Below, in pieces: positions 1 through 39,456 of a DNA stretch of 39,456 nucleotides. How positions within the stretch are numbered: the first letter of the stretch is position 1; each line of letters opens with the position of its first letter. Both the position numbers and the translations under genes were made by a program. The notes below the pieces were generated by a model that did no database searches, was not told where the DNA came from, and worked only from the letters and a program-made list of their open reading frames with translations. This stretch comes from a virus (Duplodnaviria; Caudoviricetes). The stretch lies in IMG/VR virus record IMGVR_UViG_3300020043_002150, positions 1 through 39,456 of that record, one strand, 5' to 3'.

Positions 1-121
1 GGTTCCTTTGTATTGTATTATTTAGCATATTTTTAAGGCATATCAACCACGGGATTGATAATCGAATTTACAACTCGTTGTATATCGTTGTAAGTAGCCC
101 AATCTCCGACTGCGGCTGCTC
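1..121. repeat. Terminal direct repeat, left copy (circular assembly overlap)
   Basis: Bases 1-121 are identical to 39336-39456. Confidence 0.97.
19..24 (-). promoter_or_regulatory. TAAATA box (same site as 39354-39359) upstream of gene 38618..39331
   Basis: CTAAATAATA on the minus strand, followed by a leader with AAAGGA SD. Confidence 0.7.
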
Positions 122-2078
122 GTTGTTGTCTTTCCATCCAATCACTGCCAAGTTGTCTGACTATTTCTGTTTGTTGTGCTACCGTTGTAGGATTAGTAGA
201 AACAGGCTGCGTTGTAGGTGCTATTGCTCCTGCGGCAGGTATAGTAGGCAACTGATAAGTGTTTGAAGCATTAGGCGTGACCATACTGGCAGGATTATAA
301 GCCTGTCTTCTGGTGGCTGCTTGTATTTGTCGTGTAGGAACATTTTTACCAGCAATTAAATCTGCTATCTGTGCTCCAGTCAGCGGTTCTGCGAGTTGCT
401 GTAAGCCCCAAGGCGTGTCTGGACCTGCTGCCTGATTGTAAGCAACATCATCAAATGTAGGACCAACCTGATAACCTTTTGCGTTCCAGTTATACTTGCT
501 TTGAGCAGGGTCATAGGTATTATAAAAATCACTGGGATTGATATAACCTGGATTTAATCCCAAACCTGTGCGTGGAGGTTGCGTAGTCACTGGAGGTAAT
601 GTTGGAGGTAGAGTCGGAGGCAAAGTAGGCGGCAATGTTGGTGGCATTGTCGGTGGGAATGTCGTAGGCTCAATATTACTCCAAGTTTCTGTTTCAGTGT
701 CAGTTGGTGTTTCTGTAGGAGGCTCTGTGGTCACAGGAGGCTCTGTTGTAAATGGCGGTAAGGTAAAATCAGTGACACTAATAGTAAATGTTTCCGTTGG
801 CGGAGGTGTAGTCTGCGGTGGTCGTGACGCAGTAATAATAATTTCACTGACTTCTTCAGTTTCAGTTGGCAACGGAGGTAATGTCATATCAGTGACACTA
901 ATAGTAAATGTTTCCGTTGGAGGTGGAGTTGTCTGCGGTGGTCGTGACGCAGTAATAATAATTTCACTGACTTCTTCTGTTTCCGTGATTGGTGGTAAAG
1001 AAGGCAATAGCGTATCCGTGAAACTAAATGTCAAAGTTTCAGTTGGAGGTGGAGTTGTCTGTGGAGGACGAGAAGCAGTAATAATAATTTCGCTGACTTC
1101 TTCAGTTTCAGTAATCACTGGTTCAGTAGGTATCTCTGGTAGTGGCATTGGTGTGACACTGATCAAAGGTATAGATATAGTAGGTCTATCAGTGGTAATA
1201 ATAATCTCACTGATTTCTTCTGTTGGTGATGGAGTAGGTCTTTCAGCAGTAATAATAATCTCACTGATTTCTGGTGTATCAGTGGGTGCGATATTACTCC
1301 AACTTAAAGTCGGTGCTTCTGTTGGTGGTTCTGTGGGACGCACAGCACTAATAATAATCTCCGAAATCTCTTCTGTTGGTGGTTCAGTTGGAGGAATAGT
1401 ATAAGGCAGCGTTGGTTCTTCCGTGGGTGGTATGGCACTCCAAGGTTCTGTAGCAGGCGGTTCTGTTTCAGGTGGTTCTGTAGGACGCGGTGCTGTAATA
1501 ATAATCTCACTGATTTCTTCAGTAGGTGCTTCAGTCACAGGAGGTTGCCAGGGCTCTGTAGGAGCCTCAGTAGGTGCTTCTGTTTCAGGTGGTTGCCAAG
1601 GTGCTTCTGTTTCAGGTGGCTGCCAAGGTGCTTCTGTTTCAGGTGGTTGCCAAGGTGCTTCTGTTTCAGGTGGCTGCCAAGGATCTACTGGACCTGTATC
1701 AATAGGTCCAGTGTCAATAGGTCCAGTATCAATAGGTCCAGTATCTATGGGTCCATTGTCAATAGGAGTTTCTTGATACGGATCATCACCATAGCCAAAA
1801 CTATCGTCAAATCCACCACCAGGTTCTCCCCAACCCCCACCCCAATCTCCCCAATCTCCAAATCCTCCGCCAGCACCACCATCCATTTCAGTCCAATAAC
1901 TATTATTGTCCGCAAACGCAAATTCTGGTAATCCTGTCTTTGGATTGATTGTGCCTCTACCACCCATACGCTTGAGCAAGGCTGCTTCTTCTGGGTTGAT
2001 GTGGGCTAATATGGTGTCACCGTCTCTGCCGTATTGTGCCAGCATTTCTGCTAATGAGGGTAGATTCTTTTTGTTCAT
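33..2078 (-). CDS. Putative internal virion/ejection protein; Pro/Thr/Glu-rich, with 7 TonB-box-like repeats
   Basis: N-terminal GRDGDTILAHINPEEAALLKRMGGRGTINPKTGLPEF is a motif I recognise from podophage virion proteins. The gene lies between tail genes and, across the junction, the ejection-protein cluster. TAAATA-N5-ATG start. Confidence 0.7.
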   Translation of the reverse strand: MNKKNLPSLAEMLAQYGRDGDTILAHINPEEAALLKRMGGRGTINPKTGLPEFAFADNNSYWTEMDGGAGGGFGDWGDWGGGWGEPGGGFDDSFGYGDDPYQETPIDNGPIDTGPIDTGPIDTGPIDTGPVDPWQPPETEAPWQPPETEAPWQPPETEAPWQPPETEAPTEAPTEPWQPPVTEAPTEEISEIIITAPRPTEPPETEPPATEPWSAIPPTEEPTLPYTIPPTEPPTEEISEIIISAVRPTEPPTEAPTLSWSNIAPTDTPEISEIIITAERPTPSPTEEISEIIITTDRPTISIPLISVTPMPLPEIPTEPVITETEEVSEIIITASRPPQTTPPPTETLTFSFTDTLLPSLPPITETEEVSEIIITASRPPQTTPPPTETFTISVTDMTLPPLPTETEEVSEIIITASRPPQTTPPPTETFTISVTDFTLPPFTTEPPVTTEPPTETPTDTETETWSNIEPTTFPPTMPPTLPPTLPPTLPPTLPPVTTQPPRTGLGLNPGYINPSDFYNTYDPAQSKYNWNAKGYQVGPTFDDVAYNQAAGPDTPWGLQQLAEPLTGAQIADLIAGKNVPTRQIQAATRRQAYNPASMVTPNASNTYQLPTIPAAGAIAPTTQPVSTNPTTVAQQTEIVRQLGSDWMERQQRAAAVGDWATYNDIQRVVNSIINPVVDMP
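768..1110 (-). repeat. ~120-bp coding tandem repeat x3 (TETEEVSEIIITASRPPQTTPPPTET...)
   Basis: Near-identical blocks at periods of 120 and 123 bp (compare 781-860 with 901-980). Confidence 0.9.
1572..1679 (-). repeat. 27-bp coding tandem repeat x4 (WQPPETEAP)
   Basis: aggtgcttctgtttcaggtggYtgcca four times, with no spacers. Confidence 0.95.
1690..1764 (-). repeat. 15-bp coding tandem repeat x5 (GPIDT)
   Basis: ggWccWgtRtcWatR-type units in tandem; the last unit is slightly degenerate. Confidence 0.9.
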
Positions 2079-2083
2079 TATGT

Positions 2084-2089
2084 TATTTA
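2084..2089 (-). promoter_or_regulatory. TAAATA box, leaderless class
   Basis: TAAATA-ACATA-ATG(2078). Overlaps the stop codon of the upstream gene. Confidence 0.7.
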
Positions 2090-3301
2090 TTTCTTTATCA
2101 CTTGTGCTGTCAGGCTGCGTCTGTTTAAGTTCATTGACTTTACAGCAACTTCGGCACCACTTTCAACATCTACATTGACTTCCATAATATACCAATAAAG
2201 TCCTGATGGTGGTGCGTCAATGATAGGAGTAAAGATAGTTAAACTCTGTGGTGCTTGTATATCACCAGTGCTATCTATAGTTGCTACTTGTAATACTAAA
2301 TCGTTGGCTGGAGTTGTTCCACCAAGTTGGCTGCCACTAAAAGTCACGGTATCACCAACAGCATAATTTCCACCACCTCCAGCACTTAAAATAGTAGAAC
2401 CTGTGCTGTAATTAGTTCCAGGAGCAGTTATATCTAAAGTTATTACCGCATTCGTTCCAGAACCAGAAGTAGAAACAGCATCGACATTAGTATAGATGCC
2501 ACTGGCACTGGCATCCGAAATTCCGCTGACAATGGTATAAGTTAGCGGGATACCTTCTGTATATGCTGTAAGGCTATCGTTATAAATTAGTTGCTTACTA
2601 ATAGTAGCATCAAACTCATAAAAATATTGAGGGTTTGCGGCTGTTCCACTATTAAACGCTCGATATCTGTTTAACTCTACATAAACATTCATCTGCGGAA
2701 CCGTGGATGGAAAATTAGTATTAGCAACAGCATAGTCAAATGGTGATATGTCAAGTTGTGCTGTGATGCTAACAAGATTATTACCAGCATCTATTTCTAC
2801 AATAGCATTAGCATCAGTGCTCATTACAGCACCATATCCACTGGTGACCCAGAGACTGGCTGTTCCTCCTGTGCCTACAACTCCAGGATTAGGAAAAGGA
2901 TTGGCTGCTCGTAATATAACATAATCAGTAGTGACTTTAACTACACCAATTCTACTAAAGGTATCATTATAGTCGCTGGGTGTGACACCGCTAATGGTCA
3001 CGCCATTACCTAAAGCAAATGGCGGATAAGGTTGAGTTGAAGCAAATGTAAATTTCCAAGTATAATCATCCAGCCATTCGCTGGTAGATAATGCTATAGG
3101 TGCTACATAAAGTTCGGCAGCAGTGGGTAAAAAATTAGACGGGTTAGTATAAGGAATGCGAAAGTTGCCAGTTATTCTGGCTGGTTCTGAACTACTAAAA
3201 CCAACAAGTTGTTGTCCAATACCACTGGGACCACTGATAGCGTAATTTACAGCATCTAATAAACTTTGGTCGTCACCACCATTGACAGGATAATTAGCCA
3301 T
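2087..3301 (-). CDS. Tail/virion structural protein
   Basis: 404 aa, rich in Gly/Ser/Thr beta-strand sequence, with a GGxNYAVGDTVT fibre-type motif. Translationally coupled to the nozzle gene. Confidence 0.65.
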   Translation of the reverse strand: MANYPVNGGDDQSLLDAVNYAISGPSGIGQQLVGFSSSEPARITGNFRIPYTNPSNFLPTAAELYVAPIALSTSEWLDDYTWKFTFASTQPYPPFALGNGVTISGVTPSDYNDTFSRIGVVKVTTDYVILRAANPFPNPGVVGTGGTASLWVTSGYGAVMSTDANAIVEIDAGNNLVSITAQLDISPFDYAVANTNFPSTVPQMNVYVELNRYRAFNSGTAANPQYFYEFDATISKQLIYNDSLTAYTEGIPLTYTIVSGISDASASGIYTNVDAVSTSGSGTNAVITLDITAPGTNYSTGSTILSAGGGGNYAVGDTVTFSGSQLGGTTPANDLVLQVATIDSTGDIQAPQSLTIFTPIIDAPPSGLYWYIMEVNVDVESGAEVAVKSMNLNRRSLTAQVIKK

Positions 3302-5406
3302 CAGCGATCATCCTCAACCTGTGTGAATTGCCAGGTAGTCGCACTACACATCCATACATTACTACTACTGGTATTCCCTAACTCAATGCTATTCACTCTG
3401 TAAGAGTTTTGATCAATTTGTATCCAAGGGTTATCAGTGTTTAATGCCATTGATTGACTTGCCTGAGTTGTTGGTAGTTGTCCTACACTTTGAGCACCTT
3501 CTATAGTCACACTGATCGTGCCAGTGCTTGGTATGATTGTTATCTCGTCAGTTGATGAAAATGGTATAGCACCAATATTCACTGCTTCAGGTAAGATCCT
3601 ATGGACCATAAGTTTGCCACTATAGTCTTTGATCATTTTAATGTTATCTCTACGGAACCTGCTGGTAATCGCACTACCATCTGCTTGAGTGTAGCCTATA
3701 TCTTTTTGGACTAACTTGCTGTCTGTGACACCCTGAGCATAGACCACGGTTCTGCTGCCAAAGTTAGCAGTCCAAGTGCCAGGTGTGTCTTCTACATAGA
3801 TAGGACTTTCACAGCCCATAGTTGCTGAACTTACATCTCTGGGTGCGTTCCAACAATCAATATCATATCTGTATGCCAACATCTTATTTGGCACACCGTT
3901 AGTTGCTTGGCTGTCTGGATAGTAAATCTCAATCTGGTTCTTTTGGCTATTGACTTCCATAAACACACGGTTGTAAAACTCTGGATCAAGTTGATCATAG
4001 AACCAGTTTTTAACACGCTGATTACCTATGCCAGTAAAGTCTTGTCCGTCGAATACCCAGATATCACGGGCATCAATACCATAGACTAACTTGTCTGTAT
4101 TGCCCCAGCAGTTTGCTGATAACAATCCTCTGCCCTGATTATACAATCTAACACCAAGAATTGGTGCTGATGTTGTAGAGTAGTTTAATGGTGAGAACAC
4201 CACCGTGTCCCAGTATGAACATAAGAAGAAGTTGCCATTACTTGGAAAAGCATCAAGAGCAGGACCACGCAACGGAACTTCTAACTGGTTGGCTACATTG
4301 GTGATTGTTGGTTCCCAGGTCAATGGTGCTTGGTTTAATCCGAATGCTTGACTCCATTGTATCGTCACGGGATATAACTCTGTTGCTGCCGTGTTTGAGT
4401 TTGTGGCTGTAAGATTACCTGCTACCAAGATTGATCCTACATTAGGAGTAGAATACATACGCATCCAGTCTGCTTTATAACTTGTCCAGTATGGGTTATA
4501 GTTCCAAGCGTATAAGGGTGCTACACTTCCGCCTCCAGGATAGCCTGCTGTTGGACTTGCTTGATATATGATGCCTAATAGTGTGCTTGATGATACGGTG
4601 AATGTTCCATCATATACACCATTTACTCCACTGATCACAATCTGACTATTAGCCAAATATGGTATAGCATTGTATGGACTCATAGTCATAGTTGTGCTTG
4701 ACACGGTCTGAGAGTTATTCACCGTCCAAGTAGAACCATTACCAGATCCTGATATGTTTGCTGTGATTCTTGTGCCTGTGGCTACACCAGTGCCATTGAC
4801 ATACTGACCAACTTTGAGTGTGCCAGTTCCACCACTGAATGAACCGATAGTCAATGTTGTTCCACTTATATCACAACCAGTAGCAACTACGGTGTCACTG
4901 AATGTCAGGTATTGTTCTGTTGGACTTTCATAAACGATGTCGTCAATATCAGTAGGCAATAGGTTAGAGTATAATGTCAGCGTAGGGCTACCGTCCAACC
5001 AAACCATAGGTGGATTGAATGTGTCATTGAAGAAAGGCACGGTGCCATTCCACGCTTCTGTTATGTTTGTAGCCTGTGTATAACCTGTGAAGTCTCCACC
5101 TGCTGGTGTTATGTCTTGCCAAGTTCCATCATATGTTGCCCACCATTTTCCTTCTGTGGTTGCTACGATAAACCAGAAGTATGTGTCTGCTCTAAAACCT
5201 GAACTGATATATGTTGGTGTTCCTTCTAAACTATCAAAGAACTCTTGCTCACCTGCTACTGAGCGTATGCCACGAACATCTGTTTCTACATTCAGTCCTT
5301 GATTGTATTCGTTTGGTCCTAACGCTGTTGAAGGAACATCAGGAGTGAATGACATCTTCGCAAAAGGTATGCGAACTTCGTCAAGTGGGTTGCGGATTTG
5401 TGCCAT
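3301..5406 (-). CDS. Tail stabilisation/nozzle protein (P22 gp10 / T7 gp12-like) with an inserted beta domain
   Basis: 701 aa with Trp/aromatic beta-propeller-like periodicity (DIWVFDGQ...IGNQRVKNWF...EIYYP...AYRY...W). Size and context fit. Confidence 0.65.
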   Translation of the reverse strand: MAQIRNPLDEVRIPFAKMSFTPDVPSTALGPNEYNQGLNVETDVRGIRSVAGEQEFFDSLEGTPTYISSGFRADTYFWFIVATTEGKWWATYDGTWQDITPAGGDFTGYTQATNITEAWNGTVPFFNDTFNPPMVWLDGSPTLTLYSNLLPTDIDDIVYESPTEQYLTFSDTVVATGCDISGTTLTIGSFSGGTGTLKVGQYVNGTGVATGTRITANISGSGNGSTWTVNNSQTVSSTTMTMSPYNAIPYLANSQIVISGVNGVYDGTFTVSSSTLLGIIYQASPTAGYPGGGSVAPLYAWNYNPYWTSYKADWMRMYSTPNVGSILVAGNLTATNSNTAATELYPVTIQWSQAFGLNQAPLTWEPTITNVANQLEVPLRGPALDAFPSNGNFFLCSYWDTVVFSPLNYSTTSAPILGVRLYNQGRGLLSANCWGNTDKLVYGIDARDIWVFDGQDFTGIGNQRVKNWFYDQLDPEFYNRVFMEVNSQKNQIEIYYPDSQATNGVPNKMLAYRYDIDCWNAPRDVSSATMGCESPIYVEDTPGTWTANFGSRTVVYAQGVTDSKLVQKDIGYTQADGSAITSRFRRDNIKMIKDYSGKLMVHRILPEAVNIGAIPFSSTDEITIIPSTGTISVTIEGAQSVGQLPTTQASQSMALNTDNPWIQIDQNSYRVNSIELGNTSSSNVWMCSATTWQFTQVEDDR

Positions 5407-5430: not shown

Positions 5431-5436
5431 TATTTA
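5431..5436 (-). promoter_or_regulatory. TAAATA box upstream of nozzle gene
   Basis: GCTAAATAATAG, 24 nt before ATG 5406. Confidence 0.7.
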
Positions 5437-5499: not shown

Positions 5500-5778
5500 T
5501 TATAAACCGTTGCTGATAAACTTTACCAACGGATCTCGCTCAAACCATAAAAACAACTTGGCTTTATTTGATGTGATTTGCCAGCCACCTTGGTAATCTA
5601 ACTTCTTTAACTTGAGTAGTCCATTGTCTTTATGATCTATCCAAATATGCTTTGGCGTTATCTTTTTAACTTGACCACAATGATTGATTGCGGTTTTATC
5701 TACGGTGCCATTACCCCATATAACAAATGGTCCATACTGAACAAAAGCATCTGCGAATAGTTCTGGTTGTTGTGTCAT
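5500..5778 (-). CDS. Hypothetical protein
   Basis: 92-aa ORF with strong SD (GAAGGAGA) and GATAAATA box at 5803-5810. Confidence 0.75.
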   Translation of the reverse strand: MTQQPELFADAFVQYGPFVIWGNGTVDKTAINHCGQVKKITPKHIWIDHKDNGLLKLKKLDYQGGWQITSNKAKLFLWFERDPLVKFISNGL

Positions 5779-5850
5779 TACATTCTCCTTCTAATGTGTA
5801 AGTATTTATCTCAAGGTTCTGTTTATTGTAGGCAGAACCATTGAGCAATC

Positions 5851-6471
5851 TTACCAATAATAACTATTCTTTGGTTCAGGTTTAAATCCATAGACACGCT
5901 CCACATAACGGTTTGACAAGGTCCTGATGTTAAACCTTTTTCGACCGTTGCGTAAGCGTGTTGGATCTTTGACTACATACTTGTCTAATAGTTTGGATAA
6001 CTCTCGGTCGAATGCTTCAACATCTTCAGTTCTAATGTAATGATTGGGCACATCTATTCTAACAGCACGATCTACGAACCTACGCTCACCATTCTGGTAG
6101 ATATGATTGTAGTCACTATACTCCCAGTTTGTTGTTGGTATTTTTCTACGCTGTTCTATCATCTGTTGCGTGATGTCTTTAAGTCTGTCTTTAATTGTCA
6201 TCAACATTATAGGTGTATTCTGAAACGCAACTCTGGGCAACCAATGAGCATCATCAAGCAGTCTGTCATCCTGAACATCAAGATGCTTCAACTCTGTCCA
6301 AAGGTCCAGACGATTTTTTTTCCAGAATGTATCCTGTCCCAGCATATTCATAAACTTTTGCTTGTCATCATAAGTTTTGATTCTATTCATCGCAGGTCCA
6401 AGTTCTACTTTAATTACTTCGTTGGTGCGTTCTCTTACAAGTGTCAAGTAAATTGGTTTTGTGTTTAACAT
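5851..6471 (-). CDS. Hypothetical protein (basic C-terminus)
   Basis: 206-aa ORF, AAAGG SD, GATAAATA box at 6493-6500. Confidence 0.8.
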   Translation of the reverse strand: MLNTKPIYLTLVRERTNEVIKVELGPAMNRIKTYDDKQKFMNMLGQDTFWKKNRLDLWTELKHLDVQDDRLLDDAHWLPRVAFQNTPIMLMTIKDRLKDITQQMIEQRRKIPTTNWEYSDYNHIYQNGERRFVDRAVRIDVPNHYIRTEDVEAFDRELSKLLDKYVVKDPTRLRNGRKRFNIRTLSNRYVERVYGFKPEPKNSYYW

Positions 6472-6480
6472 ATCTTTGCC

Positions 6481-6500
6481 TTTCTATACTATTATTTATC
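6481..6500 (-). promoter_or_regulatory. 20-bp promoter/leader repeat GATAAATAATAGTATAGAAA
   Basis: Identical to 6848-6867; 17 bp are also shared with 11805-11821. Confidence 0.8.
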
Positions 6501-6828
6501 ACTCGTGATCGTAATACTTTAATGCGATTGCTACATCAGTTTGTCCAAACTCTGTAGTTCCAAACAGATGTTCTGTGATAGCGTTTTGTTCCATTTTAAC
6601 TACATAGTCTCTGATTGTTTCTTCTGCTTCGTAGCAGTCAATCAAACATACAGCATCGTAGTTTTGTCCATTTAACTCAAAGAACTTATCTACTGCTTGG
6701 TTCTCAAAGTAGCAATCACTGATTGTAATTGTTTGTGTTGGACCTAAATCAAAATCACCGTTTGCGTCTTTAGTGTAGTAAGCAAATGTAATAGTCCAGT
6801 CTGTTGGTTGTAATTCAAATGTTGTCAT
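6499..6828 (-). CDS. Hypothetical acidic protein
   Basis: 109-aa ORF, AAAGGA SD, own promoter at 6860-6883. Confidence 0.8.
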   Translation of the reverse strand: MTTFELQPTDWTITFAYYTKDANGDFDLGPTQTITISDCYFENQAVDKFFELNGQNYDAVCLIDCYEAEETIRDYVVKMEQNAITEHLFGTTEFGQTDVAIALKYYDHE

Positions 6829-6847
6829 AGAGTATATCCTTTGTTTG

Positions 6848-6883
6848 TTTCTATACTATTATTTATCTCTGTATTCAGTTATT
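6848..6883 (-). promoter_or_regulatory. Extended promoter AATAACTGAAT-N5-GATAAATA
   Basis: Same bipartite motif and spacing as 8131-8154 and 11814-11837. Confidence 0.75.
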
Positions 6884-6913
6884 ATACACAATCAAACAGA
6901 GCAATTTGTCCAA

Positions 6914-7180
6914 TTAGTTTCCAACTTCCATAACTTCAAAGTCACTACACTTAAATCTATGGTTTAGTCTATTGACTTGTAATCTGGCACTACCAAGATT
7001 GGTGTATGTCAGTTTCTTGTAGATATGGTTATTACCAGTCATACTTCCTTGTGTAATTCTAATATTCACTGGATCGCCTTGGTATGTTATTACATAATAC
7101 ATTTCTGCTTGTAAAACTTCCCATAAACTTCCATCTCCTACTTCTTGTGCTAATCTTACTTTTGGTTTTGGTCTTGCCAT
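6914..7180 (-). CDS. Conserved phage hypothetical protein (MxRPKP N-terminus)
   Basis: 88-aa ORF with AGGA SD. MARPKP...YKK..Y.N.G.A....LN..F...DF.V resembles, from memory and unverified, a family in large uncultured aquatic myoviruses. Confidence 0.75.
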   Translation of the reverse strand: MARPKPKVRLAQEVGDGSLWEVLQAEMYYVITYQGDPVNIRITQGSMTGNNHIYKKLTYTNLGSARLQVNRLNHRFKCSDFEVMEVGN

Positions 7181-7181
7181 T

Positions 7182-7400
7182 TTAATTTCCTATCTTTCTA
7201 AATCTGTTTTGGTATTCTGGATGCTTTAATATAAACATCATTGTTTGTTCTTCTGTAAGTGTTGCCCAGTAAGTTTGCCATTGCCAATCAATACCAGTAT
7301 TAAATGGACTATGACTATGAAACTCTTTTAAGTCTGCCATCAACTTTTTAACTGGATAGTCAGGACCTTCATAATCCATATCCTGTGTAATCTTCATCAT
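7182..7400 (-). CDS. Hypothetical protein
   Basis: ORF track entry; the likely start is ATG 7400, in ATGA overlap with the upstream stop. Confidence 0.65.
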   Translation of the reverse strand: MMKITQDMDYEGPDYPVKKLMADLKEFHSHSPFNTGIDWQWQTYWATLTEEQTMMFILKHPEYQNRFRKIGN

Positions 7401-7792
7401 ACATTCCACCACTTTTCTTTTACTGGTTTTAGTTTCGCTCTTGCTAACTTTGGTTGTTCAACTTCTGGTAATGGTATTGTTCTATCTGTTCCATCAATTC
7501 TGTATATGCGTTGGTTTGGTAAAACTTCAAAGTGATTTGGATTCATACAGAATCTATTTTTACAAGTTTGTCTTATCTGTAAATGCTCACAATCTTCGTT
7601 GTTCAAACTACGATAAACTAATCTTCGGGCTTGTGTCATTTGGGCTATGCCATTCTTTTTAGCACCCATAAGATTTGTAAATGGACCAACTGAACCTGTC
7701 CAAGCCCAGCAATCATCATCTCCTGTTTTGACTATCTTTGCCCATAATAGTTCGTCGTTCCACGACCAATCGCCTACGGTTCTGTATGTCAT
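7397..7792 (-). CDS. HNH endonuclease-like protein (His-Cys zinc loop), possibly inactive
   Basis: DDCWAWTG...CKNRFCMNPNH motif. Gln stands where the catalytic His usually precedes the first Cys. Confidence 0.7.
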   Translation of the reverse strand: MTYRTVGDWSWNDELLWAKIVKTGDDDCWAWTGSVGPFTNLMGAKKNGIAQMTQARRLVYRSLNNEDCEHLQIRQTCKNRFCMNPNHFEVLPNQRIYRIDGTDRTIPLPEVEQPKLARAKLKPVKEKWWNV

Positions 7793-8109
7793 AACTTTAT
7801 CTCTCCATCATCAAATACTACTAACAACTCTGGGTTGTTTCTAAACAAGTCCAATAAACCTAACGCCATTAAATCTACCTGTGTTTCAGTTAGGTTCAGT
7901 GATAACTTCTGTTCTATTGCGTGTAGTAATTCGTGTAGTAGTGTATGCTTCTTGCTGTCTTTGTCTTGATCTTCGTGTAGTAAGATCTTACGCTGATCTG
8001 GTAAGCACAAGCCCAAATGCTCTGGCATTTCTCGTTCTTGTCCTAACTTGATCTGCCATTCTTGACTGAATAACTTAAAAGTTGCTGTTGTCTGTTTTGT
8101 CTTCTTCAT
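7789..8109 (-). CDS. Small HExxH zinc metallopeptidase-like protein (ImmA/IrrE-like fold)
   Basis: G.C....KI.L...TLLHELLHAI...E motif; AAAGGAGA SD. Confidence 0.7.
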   Translation of the reverse strand: MKKTKQTTATFKLFSQEWQIKLGQEREMPEHLGLCLPDQRKILLHEDQDKDSKKHTLLHELLHAIEQKLSLNLTETQVDLMALGLLDLFRNNPELLVVFDDGEIKL

Positions 8110-8130
8110 TACATATCTCCTTTGTATATC

Positions 8131-8154
8131 TATTTATCTTTACATTCAGTTATT
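8131..8154 (-). promoter_or_regulatory. Extended promoter AATAACTGAAT-N5-GATAAATA
   Basis: Bipartite motif shared with sites 6860 and 11814. Confidence 0.75.
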
Positions 8155-8194
8155 TGCTTACGACTTGTTATAAACCTGGTTAAACTCAAAGTTT

Positions 8195-8381
8195 GTGTTT
8201 GTTAGTAGTGTTAGTAGTTTTTACGCTTTCTATTAGTTTTTTTTTACTTTTTTTTTTTTTGTAGAATATATAAAAAACTACTAACACTACTAACAAACAC
8301 TATAAAAACAGCATTACAGGCACCTACAATGCTGTTTTTTGTGTTAGTAGTTTTTTGTTTTCACTACTAACAACTACTAAC
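8195..8381. other. Putative replication origin (iterons, inverted repeat, T-tract)
   Basis: Perfect 28-bp inverted repeat (8195-8222 / 8273-8300) flanks a poly-T/AT-rich spacer. Seven CTACTAAC/GTTAGTAG octamers. Directly downstream of the primase and helicase genes. Confidence 0.7.
8301..8340 (-). terminator. Intrinsic terminator after the helicase (possibly bidirectional)
   Basis: AAAAACAGCATTGTAG-GTGC-CTGTAATGCTGTTTTT hairpin; the G-U pairs favour the minus strand. Confidence 0.65.
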
Positions 8382-10017
8382 AAATATCATCAAAAAAGTC
8401 ATCATTTTGCTGATCTTGTAGTATTTTAGCCCTGATTTTCTCCAATTGTGTAGCATTTGGTAGGTTTTTCACCTCAATTTCCAGGTCTGTGTTAGTAGTT
8501 GTTAGCACTTGTGGTGACTCAACTCCTAACACTTTTGCCAGATCCTGATACACATCTTCCCAGTCCTGAAGATCAACAACATCTGGATTTTGTATGGTAT
8601 AGTAAGTATAGTTTCGTTCTACACTTTTTCTAACATACTTGTTTTTGCTCATCATTTTACCCCAAGCGGTCAAACTCAGTTTTCTATCACTGCCACCGTG
8701 GTCATCGTGCCATCTACTATATTGTTCGTAAAGCACACTGGCTTTATAACTATGATTGTTATTGCGTTCCAGTGTATCATCGCTGTCTAACCAAACGCTT
8801 ACAGGATTATTCACGCTTTCCAAAATACTCTTTTTAATCTTATTGATAAAACTATAGTTGCTGAATTGTATGTCCAGTTTAACCGTTTCTAAAACATAGG
8901 CAAAGCCTTCAGCCATTTCGATTGGTCTATCAATTGTCTGTCGTTTGATAGCACTGGCATATCTAACCCAGTTAGGGTCTTCTGTAGTTTTAATAAACTG
9001 ATTACGACGATCACTTGGTCCAATCTTTATTGGACATTCGTTATTGGTAGTAAAGATGTAATTGGCTGTATTGATAATAGCAAACGGAGTTGTATTACGC
9101 TTGTTGATCATCAGTGTAGGTTCATTACAATGGCTTTTAACCCATCTGTCCCAGTCAAACTTTTGACCTTCATCATCAAACTCATTTACTTCGATTAGTT
9201 GTTTGCCAACAAGGTGATCGTTCCAGCCTTTAATAATATCACTGCTACTTAAACCACCAACAGCGTTATTACCCATAATAAGTTTCATCAAACTTAAAAG
9301 CGTTCCTTTACCGTTGCCCTGTAATTCTCCGACAAACCACAGATTGGTTAGTAAATTGATACCTGGACGCTGAACTAACGCTGCCAACCATTTCATAACA
9401 AACTTAAAATCATCGTTGGTATAAGTGTCGTCTTTTATCTGTTTCCAAAGCATATCTGCTTCTATTTTGCTGTCTTCGTTCAACATCTCACCATTACATA
9501 AACTACGATAAACCAATCTGGTCATCAGTTTGCCATAAGCAAGATGCTGTTCATTACCAGGCAAACTATTGTCACGCCATTCGTTGAGATAACGCTTACC
9601 GCTGTATGATATAAACTTTGGACCAATAGGTATGCTCATTCTGGCATCAACCTGCGGACAACTTCCAATCACGCCCAAGCCTTCATTCTTTTTAACTAAT
9701 CCAGTGCCAGCATCCATATAATGAACAAAGCCACTAAAATAAGTTTCAATAAGTTCTTGCGTGACCACGCTACCGTTTGGTAGTCTATAGTTTAAGAATA
9801 TATTAAATGCGTGTTTCTTGGCATCCTGATCTTTAAAACTACTCCAACCTAAAGTCTCTGGATTGTATATAAAATACTCTCCGTCGATCTTACTGATATA
9901 CTCTGTTAGTTGTCTTAAATCTGCTATCAGTGTATTGTTGCTGTTTGATAACCAAATGTGATCCTCAAACGCATACTTCGTGTAAATGTTCTTATCTACA
10001 CCACTTTGTTTTTTCAT
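8377..10017 (-). CDS. SF3-type replicative helicase (DUF5906 / NrS-1 / D5-like)
   Basis: WLAALVQRPG, Walker A GELQGNGKGT, Walker B LIEVNE, sensor IFTTN and SDRR. Confidence 0.85.
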   Translation of the reverse strand: MKKQSGVDKNIYTKYAFEDHIWLSNSNNTLIADLRQLTEYISKIDGEYFIYNPETLGWSSFKDQDAKKHAFNIFLNYRLPNGSVVTQELIETYFSGFVHYMDAGTGLVKKNEGLGVIGSCPQVDARMSIPIGPKFISYSGKRYLNEWRDNSLPGNEQHLAYGKLMTRLVYRSLCNGEMLNEDSKIEADMLWKQIKDDTYTNDDFKFVMKWLAALVQRPGINLLTNLWFVGELQGNGKGTLLSLMKLIMGNNAVGGLSSSDIIKGWNDHLVGKQLIEVNEFDDEGQKFDWDRWVKSHCNEPTLMINKRNTTPFAIINTANYIFTTNNECPIKIGPSDRRNQFIKTTEDPNWVRYASAIKRQTIDRPIEMAEGFAYVLETVKLDIQFSNYSFINKIKKSILESVNNPVSVWLDSDDTLERNNNHSYKASVLYEQYSRWHDDHGGSDRKLSLTAWGKMMSKNKYVRKSVERNYTYYTIQNPDVVDLQDWEDVYQDLAKVLGVESPQVLTTTNTDLEIEVKNLPNATQLEKIRAKILQDQQNDDFFDDIC

Positions 10018-10871: not shown

Positions 10872-10872
10872 A

Positions 10873-11100
10873 TTACATTAGTCTTATACCAATAGCATCT
10901 AATTTAGAAGCAATATCCTGTAAGTTATCAACTACATTTTTTTGATCATTACTATTTTCAGCAATAAGGTGTAAAGCACCTGATATATCTTCTGTATAAT
11001 TGCTGTTGGCAGCAATCTCATCTAATCGTTCTGTAATGCTTGCCATATGTGCGTTTAACTTTCTCAAGTTATCTATCAACAATCCTTCAAACTCTGTCAT
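10873..11100 (-). CDS. Hypothetical coiled-coil protein
   Basis: 75 aa with heptad pattern; ATGA-coupled to the upstream gene. Confidence 0.7.
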   Translation of the reverse strand: MTEFEGLLIDNLRKLNAHMASITERLDEIAANSNYTEDISGALHLIAENSNDQKNVVDNLQDIASKLDAIGIRLM

Positions 11101-11789: not shown

Positions 11790-11804
11790 AGTATTCCTTT
11801 CTAA

Positions 11805-30641: not shown

Positions 30642-30937
30642 TAGTCTGCCTTTAGTTCTTGTCTAATTTGATGAACATAAAACATTGCCTGAGCAAGGCT
30701 TTCTATTTCATCACAACTTAAACTCCAAGTGTCAGGGTCGGATAAGTCTGTGGTTTCCAATTTAGTTAAACCTATTTGTAATCGTTCTGTGATTAAACGA
30801 AGGATATGCTCAACCTGATTAGGATACTTGTCAGCAAATGCGATACGATGACTGGCATTTACCTTTTGTAAGATAAGCGTGTCATTATATCGGGCAGCGT
30901 CTTGTGCTGCCTTTATTTCGGATTCTCGGGCGGTCAT
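30641..30937 (-). CDS. Hypothetical protein (alternative small-terminase candidate)
   Basis: Helical ORF coupled to terL; likely ATG 30937 in ATGA overlap. Confidence 0.65.
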   Translation of the reverse strand: MTARESEIKAAQDAARYNDTLILQKVNASHRIAFADKYPNQVEHILRLITERLQIGLTKLETTDLSDPDTWSLSCDEIESLAQAMFYVHQIRQELKAD

Positions 30938-31707
30938 TTTGACAAGTCCCAAGGATTATTACGAACTGAATCATCAAGACTGATAAACTCACGGTCGATC
31001 CATACTTCCCACTGATTAGACTTATTGACTTTAAATGTCATCATCATACCACGCAAGCGTTTGCCCATAGGTGTTAGTGTGCCATCTTCACGGACAATAG
31101 TTTGTTCGCCTGTGCGTGGATCTACCCATTTAATAATTTCTGGGCGTTCTCTGCCAAACTTGTCTATTTTACTGCCGCTGGGCTTTTGCTCAAGTGGTCC
31201 AAGAACTTCATAACTAATCATTCCGTTTTTGTATTTGCGGAACAACATATGACATTTTTTATCCATTGCTCTGGCTTCTGGATCAGGATGTGGAACAATA
31301 GGACTATAGAATATATTTTGAACTTGGCTACGGTCAGGTAAGTTAGAATCTCGTTCAGGAACTTCTTTTAGAGGTTCTTCAGGAATCATCTCTGCTTTGT
31401 CAATATAAGGGTTGCTGTCACCTACGAATTTAGGATCAATATCAACGCCATTTAATGCGTCCATTGCTACCTGATATTTTAATTTGTTTGCTCTACCCTT
31501 TAAGTTTAAAACGATGCCTGTTTCATCAAATACGAAACGCTCAAGTTCTTTGGCTGTAGGGAAGTCAGTCATTAGACCTTCTAAATCATATTCAGCGTTA
31601 GTGACTGCTTTAGGTGGTGTTGCTTTTTTTGCTGGTGTAGAACTAACTACTTTTTCTGGTGTGCCTTCGGGTTTGTCCCAAGGATTTTCTGTATTGCTTG
31701 TTATCAT
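30934..31707 (-). CDS. Hypothetical protein
   Basis: Likely ATG 31707 with AAAGGA SD; TAAATA box at 31760-31765. Confidence 0.8.
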   Translation of the reverse strand: MITSNTENPWDKPEGTPEKVVSSTPAKKATPPKAVTNAEYDLEGLMTDFPTAKELERFVFDETGIVLNLKGRANKLKYQVAMDALNGVDIDPKFVGDSNPYIDKAEMIPEEPLKEVPERDSNLPDRSQVQNIFYSPIVPHPDPEARAMDKKCHMLFRKYKNGMISYEVLGPLEQKPSGSKIDKFGRERPEIIKWVDPRTGEQTIVREDGTLTPMGKRLRGMMMTFKVNKSNQWEVWIDREFISLDDSVRNNPWDLSK

Positions 31708-31730
31708 TTCTTTTCCTTTCATAACTATAC

Positions 31731-31757: not shown

Positions 31758-31775
31758 GTTATTTACTCTACAAAA

Positions 31776-32500: not shown

Positions 32501-32866
32501 TTATTTAGTCGTATTGACACCAGTTAGTTTAGACAATGCTTCGGCAAATGCCTGTTGTTTGGCTGCTACTGCGTCGGCACTATCATTGACTTCTATTTTA
32601 GCCAATGAGTTCATAACTTTACTTAAAATAAGATTATGATATTTGATCACCGTAGCACTATCATTGTTGGCACGACTTTTTAAGAAGTCCTCAATTAAAA
32701 GTTCTTCGTAATCTCTGCCTTTTGCTTGGTTATAAACTTGCTCAAGCAAACCACCAATAGTGATAGCATCTTTACTGCCTTTAGGTCTTCCGCTTCCAGG
32801 ACGATATCCACCGTGACTTTTTACATCAGGGTTGGATTTTGTAGCAATTTTCTTTTCTTTTGTCAT
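32501..32866 (-). CDS. Putative terminase small subunit / DNA-binding protein
   Basis: GGYRPGSGRPKGS motif common at TerS N-termini; TAAATA(32872-32877)-N5-ATG. Confidence 0.6.
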   Translation of the reverse strand: MTKEKKIATKSNPDVKSHGGYRPGSGRPKGSKDAITIGGLLEQVYNQAKGRDYEELLIEDFLKSRANNDSATVIKYHNLILSKVMNSLAKIEVNDSADAVAAKQQAFAEALSKLTGVNTTK

Positions 32867-32871
32867 ACTAT

Positions 32872-32890
32872 TATTTAGTCAGATTAAATA
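32872..32890. promoter_or_regulatory. Back-to-back divergent TAAATA boxes
   Basis: Minus-strand TAAATA at 32872-32877 and plus-strand TAAATA at 32885-32890, between divergent genes. Confidence 0.7.
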
Positions 32891-32914: not shown

Positions 32915-33403
32915 ATGAACTCATACATATGGCGTCCAGCAACAGGACAAGATGTCACTGCTATTGTTGCCTTGGCTGAATCAAACTTCCAAACAGAGAT
33001 AGATACTATCTTTACTCCCGAACCAATTACATATTCTCGTAATATTACATTGGCAATTATAAATCAATTCTATAAACCTACTACTGAACTCTTTAGTGTT
33101 GCTATAGAACCTACTGGTAATCTACTTGCTTACACTTGGGCTAAATCTAACGACTTTGCTCCTTGGTCAGACGATAAGATGGTTGGTGTGCGTATGGCTC
33201 ACCTTGATCTACGCTTGTCCAGTAGAAACAGAATCCAATTATTAAAAGATATGATACAACTATGGGAAGGTTTCGCATTGTTGAGTCAAAGTCCAATAAT
33301 CTGTTCTACTACTATGCGTAATGACCAACAGGCTTTTCTTAAACTACATCAACGGGCAGGTTATGATGTCCGTGGGTCATACGCTTACAAGCGTTTATTC
33401 TAA
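32915..33403 (+). CDS. GNAT-fold acetyltransferase
   Basis: N-terminal WRPAT..D...I and C-terminal FLKLHQRAGY motif; AAAGGA SD. The only credible plus-strand gene. Confidence 0.7.
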   Translation: MNSYIWRPATGQDVTAIVALAESNFQTEIDTIFTPEPITYSRNITLAIINQFYKPTTELFSVAIEPTGNLLAYTWAKSNDFAPWSDDKMVGVRMAHLDLRLSSRNRIQLLKDMIQLWEGFALLSQSPIICSTTMRNDQQAFLKLHQRAGYDVRGSYAYKRLF

Positions 33404-33826
33404 TGTGCTACGCAACATCCATAAACTCTTATTCAAATCTAAAATCTGTTCTTGAGCGTAATTGCTGATTTCGTCGTGTTCTTCTTCTTCGGCAATTTCG
33501 TTTAATTCTTTAAAACAATCACAGAGTTGATCTAAATCAGCCATTACCATTTCAAGCAACTCATCAGCCGTGCCTTCAATAGCATCTGTAGGCAAATCTG
33601 AGTTGGATAATATCTCATAAAGATCATTAGGCATTGGTTCTTGTAAAGTGCGTAATAGTTCGCCAATCACATCAATCTGTGCTTGTCTGCGTTCATATAC
33701 ACCCTGAAGCAATTTGTGATCGCTTCTAAAGTTTCTGCCTGTGATGTTTGCGTGGGCAGCGTGGCTTCTGTAATATGCTACGAAGTTGTCATTAAAGACT
33801 TGGGTTAGTTGTTCTGCTGTTGTCAT
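33395..33826 (-). CDS. dps: Dps/ferritin-like protein
   Basis: H.NI.G..F...H......Y.......D..GE..R ferroxidase signature and C-terminal WML; TAAATA(33832-33837)-N5-ATG 33826. Confidence 0.8.
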   Translation of the reverse strand: MTTAEQLTQVFNDNFVAYYRSHAAHANITGRNFRSDHKLLQGVYERRQAQIDVIGELLRTLQEPMPNDLYEILSNSDLPTDAIEGTADELLEMVMADLDQLCDCFKELNEIAEEEEHDEISNYAQEQILDLNKSLWMLRSTLE

Positions 33827-33830
33827 AATC

Positions 33831-36233
33831 TTATTTACCTTGTTTCTTCTTACCATCAGCGGCTTTTTTTAATAAGTCTGCGGCTTCTGCCTGTAAATCG
33901 CTGTATGATTTAGGACCTTGTAATACTTTACCAGTTTTAACATCAACTTGACGATAAATCTTTTTAGGCATATCTGGCACTAATTCTTTAACAGCATCAG
34001 GCATTCTTGTATAATCAGCATTATCAAGGATTTCGTGACGGATACCATTTTCAGTATGAGAACCTGTTGGTAAATCATCATACGATCCTTTTAATTTACC
34101 CATCATTACATTACTCATAAAATCGTTGGGTTCTCCAGCCATCATACTCATAGTGCCTGGAGGAGCATTTTTTCGTTTAGATTTAATCAACTCTAATATT
34201 TCATTAGTAGTCAATTTAGGAGTTTCTGCCACACCTTCAGGAGCAACTGGTCCTGATACAGGTGGAGTATCTACTTTAGGTTTAGATGGAGCAACTTTAC
34301 CCGTTTTCATAAACTCGCTCATTCTTTTAACTCGTTCCATTGCCGCATCATCTACGGCTTTTAATTCTTCGGGTGTCATTGCGGCTCTTTCTTGTTCTAT
34401 TCTTGTTTTTTGTGTTGGACCACGAGTAATTTTACCGTAAGCATCTGCTTCCTTAAATTGTCTATTGATTTCTGTTCTAATGGCTTTTCTGGCTTCACCG
34501 ACAGGCATTTGTTTTAGGTCTTCAATACCCATCACTTTTGTCCAATCAATTTCAGGCATACCGTGAATTTTAGCGGTTTCGTTAAACAACTCTTTGTTTA
34601 TAACTAATTGTTTATTTTTAGTTGTCACGCCAGCACCAGCGTCCATTTTCATAGCCGCACGAACTTGGAATCCATCAGCCGCATCAACGGCAGGTGTAGT
34701 AGGTTCAACTGCTGGGAACTTTTCTCTAACCAATCTATCCATTTCATCAGGCGTGACTTTACCTACCAATGCTTTACGCATTTCACCTGGAGTATTATAT
34801 ACAGGTTCGCGTTTAACTGGTGCTGGTTCTGGTGGCAATTCTGTAGGTTTTACAGGACCGACTAATTCTGGTGGTTGTGGTTTCGGCTTAAACGCTTCTA
34901 CATTTTCACTACGCCACGCTTTGATTTCGTCATAAGCCATAGCATCTGCCATTTCACGAGTTAGTTTTTGACCTCGTTGTTGAGCATCTTTTAGTAAGTC
35001 TGCTGTTCTTGCGGCAACAGCCTTGTTAAATGTATCACCAAAGTTAGCACTACCTTGTTCAGCCTGTGCGTAATGTGTAGCAACATCAGGTAATGACCAA
35101 GTTTGTTTAGGTTGTGGTGCTGGCTTAGGCATAGATGGTGCCTTGGCTTGTGTTGTAGCCATAGCAGCCTGAGCCGCAGGCGTAGGAGCAGCCATACCAC
35201 CTGGACTTATTGGTCCCGCAGCCTGAAAACCTCTGGGCATAGGTCCTGGTTGAACACCAGGCATAGGACGAACACCTGTTTGGTATTCGTTGAGTATTTT
35301 TGGCAACTCTGGAGTAAATCCTTTGTTGGCTAAACGCATATCTGCTAATGCTTGAGCACCAGCAAGACCACCTCGTAATGCTGTTAAAACTGGAACACCA
35401 CCAGTAAAGAACATACTGCCAATGTCTGCGGCAGCAGTTATTGGATTACGGTAAGTTTCGCCTAATCTTTCGCCAAATGCTCTGGCACCTTGTCCAGCGT
35501 TAGGTATATTACCACCACTCAACATCATTGCGGCTTTGTCTAATCTACCTTCAGGTAATTCGCTGATAGGTCGTTGTTCAGGCATTTGCCCGTAGGGTAA
35601 TTCGCCACGCTCAAACTTTGCGAACTCTTCAGGCGGTGTAAATGTAGGACCAATAGGATTTCTTTGACTTGGCACTTGATAACCACGGGGTGTTCTTCCA
35701 GGTCTGGCAATATAGCCTGTGCCTGTGCCTACAGCACCACTAACAACATCACCGACTGCTCCTGCGGCTTTAGGTATTGTTTGTAATCCTTTAACCGTTG
35801 GAAAAGGTGCCATAACTTCACCACCAAGTCTGGCAAGTTTAGCACTGGGAGCATCGCTCTTAAATGGCAACATCTCATTCCATTGTTCGCTGCCAAACGG
35901 AACTTGATAAGGACTTTGTTGTCCAGTAGCCGCACCATAAAGATTTCCTGGCAAGTTTAATACATCTGGAATAGCACCTAAAGTGCCAGTGACTACGCCT
36001 CTGGCAGTTTGTAAGGGCATATCTTTGGCTGCTTCTCTGTCTTGCTGACTTTCTGGACGACGACCTTGAGGACGATAAACACCAAAGGCAGCACCACCCG
36101 CACCTTCTACAGGTTTTTGTTGCTGACTTTGTGGGGCAGGACGAAGGCTACGAGCAGCCTCGTCAATGTCCTTTTCAGTAGGCTCACGCTCAAACTCTAC
36201 TCGTTGTCCATTTACTTCATAGATATATGCCAT
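33831..36233 (-). CDS. Putative internal virion (ejection) protein
   Basis: 800 aa, A/G/P-rich with hydrophobic Gly/Ala helices; last gene of the ejection-like cluster. Confidence 0.65.
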   Translation of the reverse strand: MAYIYEVNGQRVEFEREPTEKDIDEAARSLRPAPQSQQQKPVEGAGGAAFGVYRPQGRRPESQQDREAAKDMPLQTARGVVTGTLGAIPDVLNLPGNLYGAATGQQSPYQVPFGSEQWNEMLPFKSDAPSAKLARLGGEVMAPFPTVKGLQTIPKAAGAVGDVVSGAVGTGTGYIARPGRTPRGYQVPSQRNPIGPTFTPPEEFAKFERGELPYGQMPEQRPISELPEGRLDKAAMMLSGGNIPNAGQGARAFGERLGETYRNPITAAADIGSMFFTGGVPVLTALRGGLAGAQALADMRLANKGFTPELPKILNEYQTGVRPMPGVQPGPMPRGFQAAGPISPGGMAAPTPAAQAAMATTQAKAPSMPKPAPQPKQTWSLPDVATHYAQAEQGSANFGDTFNKAVAARTADLLKDAQQRGQKLTREMADAMAYDEIKAWRSENVEAFKPKPQPPELVGPVKPTELPPEPAPVKREPVYNTPGEMRKALVGKVTPDEMDRLVREKFPAVEPTTPAVDAADGFQVRAAMKMDAGAGVTTKNKQLVINKELFNETAKIHGMPEIDWTKVMGIEDLKQMPVGEARKAIRTEINRQFKEADAYGKITRGPTQKTRIEQERAAMTPEELKAVDDAAMERVKRMSEFMKTGKVAPSKPKVDTPPVSGPVAPEGVAETPKLTTNEILELIKSKRKNAPPGTMSMMAGEPNDFMSNVMMGKLKGSYDDLPTGSHTENGIRHEILDNADYTRMPDAVKELVPDMPKKIYRQVDVKTGKVLQGPKSYSDLQAEAADLLKKAADGKKKQGK

Positions 36234-38608: not shown

Positions 38609-38617
38609 TATATATCC

Positions 38618-39331
38618 TTAAATCTTAAAGCCAAGGTTGCTACCACTGCTTGAAGTAGAACTTCCAGTAGGTCCAAGGTTATAACTGGCTGCTGGAGTGC
38701 CAAATATCACTGAAGCATATTGATTGTATAATTGTTGTGGTGTCATAGCAGCCTGAGTTGCTGTGCCTGCGGCACCAACGGCTTGTCCAATATTACCACT
38801 ACCAATTTGTGCTAATTGTCCAGCCACACCTGCTCGTTGAGTAGCAATATCTCGTTGGACATCTGCGGCAGTTTTAGCCATCATATTAGCATTTGTTCCA
38901 GCAGTTTGTCGTTCAGCAAGTGCTTGTCTGGCACTACCTAAATTACCAGTGCCACCAAATTGTGCTCGTTGATCGGCGATGTTCTTTTCATAGGCTGCTT
39001 GTGCGGGAGCCAAAGCACTTTGAATTTGGTTGGCTTCATAATCAGGATTGAATAAACTTTGTAATCCACTGACACCAGTGCGTAATGCTGATTCACCAGT
39101 TTCACCTAATGTGCCCTGTGCTTGCCTTGCTATACCAGCCTGATTTTGTGCGGCATTTAATACGCCACCTGCTGCCTGATTATAAACATCAGTAGCACCT
39201 CTGACAGCACCAGTGTATGTTGGTGCTAATGTATCTGTAAAGAATTTGTTCTGTGCCTCAACTTGACTGGCTTGAGCACCTGTTAGTCTTGGGTCTGTTG
39301 AACTTTGATTGTTGGATTTTCCGCCACTCAT
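38618..39331 (-). CDS. Putative DNA pilot/ejection protein (P22 gp7-like)
   Basis: 237 aa, A/G/Q-rich; MSGGKS start, NP.Y, and GG.G.LGSARQ motif. Confidence 0.65.
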   Translation of the reverse strand: MSGGKSNNQSSTDPRLTGAQASQVEAQNKFFTDTLAPTYTGAVRGATDVYNQAAGGVLNAAQNQAGIARQAQGTLGETGESALRTGVSGLQSLFNPDYEANQIQSALAPAQAAYEKNIADQRAQFGGTGNLGSARQALAERQTAGTNANMMAKTAADVQRDIATQRAGVAGQLAQIGSGNIGQAVGAAGTATQAAMTPQQLYNQYASVIFGTPAASYNLGPTGSSTSSSGSNLGFKI

Positions 39332-39335
39332 ATTG

Positions 39336-39456
39336 GGTTCCTTTGTATTGTATTATTTAGCATATTTTTAAGGCATATCAACCACGGGATTGATAATCGA
39401 ATTTACAACTCGTTGTATATCGTTGTAAGTAGCCCAATCTCCGACTGCGGCTGCTC
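39336..39456. repeat. Terminal direct repeat, right copy
   Basis: Identical to 1-121. Confidence 0.97.

Follow-up and report, generated by a model that had tools for sequence, protein, structure and literature searches.

Virophages are eukaryotic viruses of another lineage, with double-jelly-roll capsids, that use the giant virus's own transcription machinery. Satellites of the PICI, PLE, PICMI and P4 types reside in the chromosome, are activated by an infecting helper and mostly borrow virion parts. Here we analyze a tailed phage, IMG/VR record IMGVR_UViG_3300020043_002150, whose whole 39,456-nt sequence we call the window, together with a clade of its relatives. The genes of this phage are headed by a TAAATA box. 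Its sequence suggests that it is likely a satellite virus: it builds its own particle, would have its genes transcribed only in the presence of a co-infecting large phage that provides a gp55-type late sigma, and probably relies on that phage for lysis too. According to excerpts of PMC2988020, T4-family late promoters lack a -35 element and consist of a single 8-bp box that gp55 recognizes together with gp33 and gp45; phage Aeh1 has an a/gC variant at positions -13/-12.

We compared this phage with the closest described systems. The virophages Sputnik, Guarani and LCV, as described in the available parts of PMC10301787, likewise build their own particle and have genes headed by the late promoter motif of their helper. 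Here the enzyme would instead be the bacterial core polymerase with a borrowed sigma, and the tailed-phage capsid, portal and terminase families of the window set it apart from virophages. Portions of PMC10690885 describe MiniFlayer and MulchRoom, Streptomyces phage satellites that carry their own encapsidation genes and depend on a large virulent helper; MiniFlayer has no integrase and podovirus-like short fibres. The dependence stated in those portions is for replication (no primase), whereas the dependence we predict is transcriptional and lytic; the text contains neither the word promoter nor the word sigma. The window matches these satellites in having its own capsid, portal and terminase, and departs from them in encoding a Prim-Pol and a helicase. 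Our phage works like a virophage and like MiniFlayer but fails one defining test of each. It also differs from the PICI, PLE, PICMI and P4-type satellites, since its clade has a full virion module and neither a detected integrase nor evident chromosomal residence. Phages of the T4 family encode gp55 and a clamp; the 39-kb genome has no detectable copy of either, and its box also stands before replication genes. We found no report of a satellite phage with gp55-type promoters in the open-access literature.

The window is a complete circular phage genome, classed as having direct terminal repeats and being 100% complete. Its unit length is 39,335 bp once the 121-nt terminal repeat is counted once. 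Nearly all genes lie on the minus strand, as do all features below unless stated otherwise. We compared 45 open reading frames (ORFs) with PHROG and Pfam, and 28 of these also with NCBIfam. The window encodes an SU10-type capsid and portal, a terminase, fibre-like proteins, a Prim-Pol, a helicase, two nucleases, a glycosyltransferase and a Dps-like protein. Close relatives were found in freshwater, plankton and wetland runs.

The initial annotation had placed TAAATA just upstream of gene starts at 19 sites, and we recovered the hexamer on the assigned strand at every one of those coordinates. Eighteen of the 19 head a gene, two of them (32502 and 33832) after refinement of the start codon. The site at 11966 does not; part of it coincides with a stop codon, and what follows is non-coding sequence with a hairpin. 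The sites at 19 and 39354 are a single site duplicated by the terminal repeat. Enrichment over the AT-rich background held for the placement of the box and failed for its total count. TAAATA is depleted genome-wide (28 observed vs 44 expected), which rules out simple over-representation. However, 25 of the 28 occurrences are on the coding strand, and 16 of the 45 hand-chosen ORF starts have one within 40 nt. That number was never reached by random placement (mean 0.96, maximum 7 in 100,000 trials) or with shuffled upstream windows (mean 2.8, maximum 11 in 20,000 trials). TAAATA ranks first among the upstream hexamers of the window.

The spacing between box and ATG is exactly 5 nt at seven sites, which leaves no room for a ribosome site, and 21-37 nt at 11 sites, most of which have an AAGG/AGGA-type ribosome site. 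The 5-nt boxes are at 2084-2089 (ATG 2078, predicted to be leaderless), 12777-12782 (ATG 12771), 22083-22088 (ATG 22077), 24864-24869 (ATG 24858, upstream of scaffold-like and capsid genes), 32502-32507 (ATG 32496), 32872 (ATG 32866) and 33832-33837 (ATG 33826). The last heads the Dps/ferritin-like gene (33395-33837, Pfam). Longer spacings occur at 19-24 (identical to 39354-39359; 22 nt before ATG 39331), at 5431-5436 (24 nt before a virion gene at 3301-5406, PHROG), at 6493-6498 (21 nt before ORF 5851-6471), at 18029-18034 (23 nt before a putative fibre gene at 15435-18005) and at 27167-27172 (29 nt before the portal gene). A further box, at 31760-31765, heads the gene for a 258-aa core protein. 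The minus-strand box at 32872 forms a divergent, back-to-back pair (32872-32890) with the plus-strand box at 32885, which precedes the only plus-strand gene; this arrangement is conserved in most relatives. As originally described, the box heads structural operons and also replication genes, with the site at 11814 preceding the primase/helicase operon.

The box and its geometry are conserved across the clade. Capsid searches of IMG/VR gave 343 relatives; in the best 80 of these (76-96% identity), TAAATA precedes 252 of 1344 ATG starts, 89 of them at exactly 5 nt, and the box is present in 79 of the 80 loci. Orthologous genes keep the position of the box among 20 near-complete genomes, for example in 19 of 19 relatives (the gene headed at 22083), 18 of 20 and 15 of 19. 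We also examined a comparison lineage, found via MW202484.1, that has the same virion module (capsid about 60% and terminase large subunit, TerL, 50-53% identical). In this lineage the box precedes only 22 of 1651 starts, none at 5 nt, and the difference in A+T content (54% vs 59% in the clade) cannot explain the 14-fold gap. A single branch with support 100 parts the clade from the comparison lineage in a TerL tree built by a quick method with no outside root, so the tree shows neither sister status nor the direction of change. Two RNA runs hold capsid-region sequence of relatives as contigs, which show neither starts nor strand.

We found the same geometry in contigs that encode gp55. Among 80 such contigs the box precedes 92 of 755 starts, 49 of the 92 at 5 nt, and this common peak indicates that the clade has both the motif and the geometry of gp55-type late promoters. 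As in T4-type late promoters, whose box spans -13 to -6 from the start site, a conserved, non-random box ending in TAAATA lies upstream of the genes. The likeness to the T4-family promoters in the excerpts of PMC2988020 extends to a solitary box placed about one helical turn ahead of the predicted start, an AT-rich downstream region and the lack of a -35 element; the structural-gene promoters have no upstream consensus and so no conserved -35 element. The a/gC variant reported there for Aeh1 corresponds to the commonest form of the box in the clade (ACTAAATA in 74 and GCTAAATA in 36 of 199). We infer that the box is a promoter.

A host factor might read this promoter instead, namely an alternative or unusual primary sigma or a resident gp55-like gene, so that a particular host state would be needed and no helper. 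The leaderless 5-nt spacing and the Dps-like gene would suit a host stress programme. However, the motif and spacing match gp55-type phage promoters and show no TANNNT register. The annotation's claim that TAAATA is unlike the sigma70 hexamer stood up, since none of 149 five-nt sites fits TANNNT ending 5-8 nt before the leaderless ATG. At E 0.001, none of 14 control genomes gave a match to the gp55 family phrog_234, and a host factor would leave the missing lysis and replication genes described below unexplained. We regard this explanation as quite unlikely.

We searched the clade for a factor that could read the box. The 45 window ORFs gave no family match to a sigma, RNA polymerase, clamp or clamp loader, as the initial annotation had stated. 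The gp55 family phrog_234 matched 0 of 48 clade records (T4 control positive), the jumbo-phage late-sigma family phrog_12791 matched 0 of 26 clade genomes (CBB and T4 controls positive), and Sigma70_r2 matched 0 of 26 near-complete clade genomes and 10 of 14 control genomes. A profile of 79 gp55 sequences returned nothing under E 0.49 in 900 proteins of 21 genomes and nothing under E 3.3 in 7678 six-frame segments of the same genomes. With hhalign, none of 50 clusters exceeded a probability of 1.8% for a match to gp55. Neither the identification of the promoter nor the lack of a cognate sigma was overturned by any test that we ran. The proposed check of all ORFs for gp55 or sigma folds was completed for profiles and, as fold models, for two ORFs, with no such factor found. 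Foldseek gave no match under E 0.001 in PDB for the models of the 258-aa and 121-aa proteins, and the ESM Atlas gave no usable match for the 258-aa and 206-aa ORFs.

Gene distribution points the same way and provides the stronger argument. No non-virion gene is common to all 21 genomes (the most widespread are the Prim-Pol, in 11, and an 88-aa protein, in 10), which leaves no shared candidate activator. The universal genes are virion and packaging genes plus the Dps-like protein, the 121-aa protein and short basic proteins, and most of the universal genes of unassigned function also occur in the comparison lineage, which lacks the motif. We rejected the idea that phrog_858 is a late regulator that the clade has lost, since it cross-matches the clade's Dps-like gene. 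In two relatives (G012, L094:15557-17266; G011, L092:1431-3071) the replication slot holds an unassigned protein of 546-569 aa, which has a VHDSF motif in one of them; it had no Pfam, PDB or convincing PHROG match.

The clade also lacks a detectable endolysin. Of the comparison genomes, 19 of 24 have the endolysin families PF00182 and phrog_7, as against 0 of 26 clade genomes. Neither a further endolysin nor any integrase or sigma was detected in the 45 window ORFs, in 130 cluster representatives (PHROG and Pfam) or in 107 further proteins (Pfam only), a scan that excluded 56 ORFs under 55 aa. Replication genes show a similar contrast. All ten comparison genomes examined have a replication initiator, and all ten have a Sak or Erf recombinase. 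Among the 20 clade relatives, six have no detected primase or helicase, and terminal repeats close five of these six genomes; one further genome, G030, gave no tblastn match for these genes yet has a member of the helicase cluster. Because only two lineages are compared, the association between the motif and these losses is a single evolutionary contrast, not many.

We found little sign of integration. Among 185,579 GTDB species genomes, a search for close relatives gave one match, on a 3.2-kb contig. The best 80 of 346 metagenome matches were on phage-sized contigs, and the sole 67-kb contig holds two capsid genes. With no integrase found, the phage would have to enter together with its helper or wait as silent DNA.

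A box without a detectable reader or lysis enzyme argues for dependence on a co-infecting large phage. The helper dependence first proposed from the box alone has thus gained support from the missing endolysin and replication genes, the contrast with the motif-less lineage and the links to jumbo-phage genes described below; the dependence itself we still infer. In the mechanism we propose, the box would act alone as a -10 element spanning -11 to -6, and transcription would start 5 nt downstream of it, giving leaderless mRNAs for seven genes. Host core RNA polymerase carrying the helper's late sigma would fire the boxes, so that the small genome would stay silent until the late phase of the helper. 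Replication would rely on the phage's own Prim-Pol and helicase in the window, or on helper or host enzymes in relatives without them. The genome would then package itself and leave when the helper lyses the cell.

The helper was originally described as a large T4-like phage. We retain a large phage with a gp55-type sigma, but if there is a helper, a freshwater jumbo phage resembling Rak2 or PA5oct is somewhat likelier than a classical T4-like phage, judging from promoter usage and gene matches. The Rak2-like phages CBB, GAP32 and PA5oct (available parts of PMC5259590, PMC7318152 and PMC7824862) share with the clade the use of GA-TAAATA and a few genes. They differ in being autonomous myoviruses of 280-470 kb, and they serve here as candidate helpers only. 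In the excerpted text of PMC5259590, CBB has the ATAAATA late motif at 35 sites and a gp55-like sigma, with gp33 and gp45 not detected. The group 2 jumbo phages of PMC7824862 are all described, in the sections available, as encoding sigma factors and a gp33 orthologue, and PMC7318152 states in part that PA5oct relies on host RNA polymerase. Rak2-like genomes favour GA-TAAATA (PA5oct 16 of 51; contig G103 37 of 75), and two classical T4-like genomes favour TA-TAAATA (13 of 30 and 25 of 67). At the 19 window sites, the preceding dinucleotide is GA at five, AC at five, GC at four and TA at none.

Individual genes gave further leads. The 88-aa protein (6914-7180), the commonest non-virion gene of unassigned function in the clade, matches 14 of 50,697 cultured phage records. 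Twelve of these records are jumbo phages, namely members of the PA5oct group (40% identity) and Phosso (469 kb), and the remaining two belong to Agrobacterium phages; these matches point to a helper of the PA5oct kind. Cultured matches to the glycosyltransferase (28056-29015) occur only in four phages of 309-385 kb, at 27-28% identity. For the fibre, Dps, 180-aa, 91-aa and 745-aa genes, cultured phages yielded no signal of a helper, and IMG/VR scans with the Dps and glycosyltransferase genes returned phage-sized contigs only. The clade shares genes with three Rak2-like and two classical T4-like genomes in a ratio of 13:4, and the comparison lineage does so at 3:7 (p 0.04), a weak contrast given many short fibre-repeat matches and unequal target sizes.

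A 17-base promoter present in three copies in the window occurs in 37 IMG/VR stretches. The Rak2-like marker phrog_11058 was found in 5 of 17 tested records with this 17-mer, and classical gp55 in 1 of 35. Both kinds of large phage thus use the 17-mer, and jumbo phages are not singled out. One fragment has the 17-mer in front of a gene whose product looks, on visual inspection, like the 88-aa protein, and in eight near-identical loci AAATAACTGAAC precedes it with a spacing of 8 nt. We used phrog_11058 solely as a marker of Rak2-like genomes; as the jumbo-phage sigma it found no support, being CBB_285 and not the gp55-like CBB_244 (hhalign vs gp55, 2-9%). It matches one clade genome (G032, E 8e-4) over only 31 of 239 positions. 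The 242-kb Rak2-like contig G103 (L658-L670) has TAAATA before 75 of 390 ORFs, many at 5 nt.

We identified a second promoter class in the window. The initial annotation had seen no separate early class, but an AWCWGAAY-N7-TAAATA class is evident in the window's subclade. It is present at four of the five boxes of the non-structural block 5803-11814, all four exact matches (chance expectation 0.24, with one mismatch allowed). These bipartite promoters precede ORF 5500-5778 (5803-5823), ORF 6499-6828 (6860-6880), the genes from 8109 to 6914, which include metallopeptidase-like, HNH and small ORFs (8131-8151), and the replication operon, directly after a terminator-like hairpin (11814-11834). 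The upstream box recurs in three close relatives (16 of 104 sites) compared with 4 of 384 sites in the other 17. It may be where a subclade regulator binds as its operator, or else a strong promoter that was copied. We tried it as a helper-wide promoter class and rejected it: of 38 larger contigs, all carry single copies except one with two, jumbo fragments have one site each with a spacing of 8 nt vs 7 nt, and five large genomes show no peak.

Several observations weigh against helper dependence. About half of the window ORFs have no family match in PHROG or Pfam, and the absence of a reader rests on sequence profiles, with two ORFs folded (predicted local distance difference test, pLDDT, 71 and 67). 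The AWCWGAAY box is limited to four genomes and forms no genome-wide class in the five large phages tested, which suits a regulator of the phage's own. Lysis genes are not entirely wanting: relative G011 has a holin-like gene, a weaker hemolysin-like family candidate occurs in 9 of 21 genomes, and one large virion-slot protein of the clade has a lytic transglycosylase domain. The window itself retains a primase and a helicase. As for the helper, 12 loci with the 17-mer form a single group that shares its downstream gene, and a classical gp55 carrier is among them. Two profiles found no late sigma in G103, the best jumbo candidate (74% complete), although it may lie in the missing part of the contig. 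Gene and promoter matches gave a helper lead but identified neither a helper nor a host. Finally, strict sigma70-like sites are mildly in excess in 20 relatives (123 vs 80 expected, with overlapping stretches counted twice), and in one relative a TTGACA-17-TATAAT site overlaps the box, so host-read promoters may exist in relatives.

The unassigned ORFs and the subclade-specific box leave room for an autonomous lytic phage that has an unrecognized lysis enzyme and its own or an injected TAAATA-specific factor, too divergent to detect. The VHDSF motif is reminiscent of single-subunit polymerases, and full 33-40 kb virion modules with hundreds of relatives resemble ordinary phages. However, such a factor would be needed in every genome, and the universal genes are virion and packaging genes that are mostly shared with the motif-less lineage; no universal protein, including the Dps-like, 121-aa and short basic ones, resembles gp55. 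The VHDSF protein is in only 2 of 21 genomes and lacks convincing matches, and the missing endolysin would demand a second coincidence. We therefore consider this explanation unlikely.

Another possibility is facultative use, in which the phage grows slowly alone from weak host-read promoters and the helper sigma merely boosts its growth or serves it as a trigger for restraining the large phage. The sigma70-like excess in relatives would suit this model, as would the TATAAT/TAAAAT-like hexamers just upstream of several bipartite promoters and the presence of a primase and helicase in about half of the genomes. The window argues otherwise, with no excess of sigma70 sites in its 5.0-13.3 kb block (29 vs 26.9 expected) and none of strict sigma70-like sites in the whole genome (5 vs 3.9 expected). 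The structural operons show the TAAATA box alone, and no endolysin was found. Facultative use seems very unlikely to us.

Dependence on a helper's late sigma thus remains our preferred reading. If it is correct, many 33-40 kb lake-virome phages that are counted as ordinary, independent predators parasitize larger phages. What ties them to the larger phage would be a borrowed sigma; virophages are known to use this route, and we did not find it for bacteriophages in the open-access literature. The difficulty of isolating such abundant phages as plaques would then have an explanation, and a late-promoter box with no sigma and no lysin would provide a cheap screen for hidden satellite viruses. 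The promoters can be tested directly with cloned late sigmas, with no need for phage culture. More tentatively, and with somewhat less than an even chance of being right, we propose that these full-size tailed phages, a large clade widespread in freshwater, are bacterial virophages with complete virion genomes, recognizable in any virome by their promoters alone. These would have been rewired from an autonomous lambdoid-like ancestor onto a Rak2/PA5oct-like late sigma, shedding transcription control, the lysis enzyme and part of the replication genes.

The remaining features of the window include two non-coding regions. The site at 11966-11971 is followed by about 110 nt of strongly folding, non-coding sequence (11850-11971; z-score -5.96) that ends in a hairpin and U-run and is 72-79% conserved in the loci of three close relatives. 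This region is a candidate late-expressed small RNA that would also insulate the replication operon. Directly after the helicase gene, non-coding inverted repeats of TAGTAG/CTACTA units (8195-8373) represent a candidate replication origin; they had no match in other fetched loci. The replication operon begins with a GIY-YIG nuclease gene (11097-11789, Pfam) and contains the Prim-Pol gene with a PriCT-2 domain (10014-10871, Pfam) and that of the helicase-like protein (8377-10017; DUF5906 in Pfam and primase-helicase PHROGs).

The virion module includes the major capsid protein gene (SU10_MCP, 22143-23312; PHROG and Pfam), the portal gene (SU10_portal, 24876-27137; Pfam) and the gene for the terminase large subunit (29025-30641; PHROG and Pfam); the glycosyltransferase noted above is a GlcNAc glycosyltransferase (Pfam). 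The 258-aa core protein (30934-31710) has a mixed alpha/beta model and also occurs in the comparison lineage. The 121-aa core protein (32501-32866), which we take to be small-terminase-like, has a GGxRPGAGRPKGS motif, with no gp55 similarity and no fold match. A 91-aa coiled-coil protein with a hydrophobic C-terminus (12776-13051) is present in 9 of 21 genomes, and a relative's copy weakly matches a hemolysin PHROG; it is possibly holin-like. The holin-like protein of G011 (L093:18698-18934) has 78 aa and is 49-53% identical to proteins of two Rak2-like contigs.

Other observations concern variable slots and individual relatives. The gene at 33-2078 codes for a 681-aa protein with long Pro/Thr/Glu tandem repeats, in a slot whose length differs greatly among relatives, and a DUF285 repeat protein (13221-15107) lies amid the fibre genes and occurs in 4 of 21 genomes. 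The slot at 33831-36233 is widely variable and may carry injected cargo; its equivalent in G003 (L086:15950-18610) has an AAA ATPase domain with only weak similarity to the T4 clamp loader. A small Cpn10 (GroES-like) gene is present within the 33-kb genome G040 (L112:5792-6046). In MW202484.1 (L082:7976-9130), the public annotation places an antisense hypothetical ORF over the true capsid gene.

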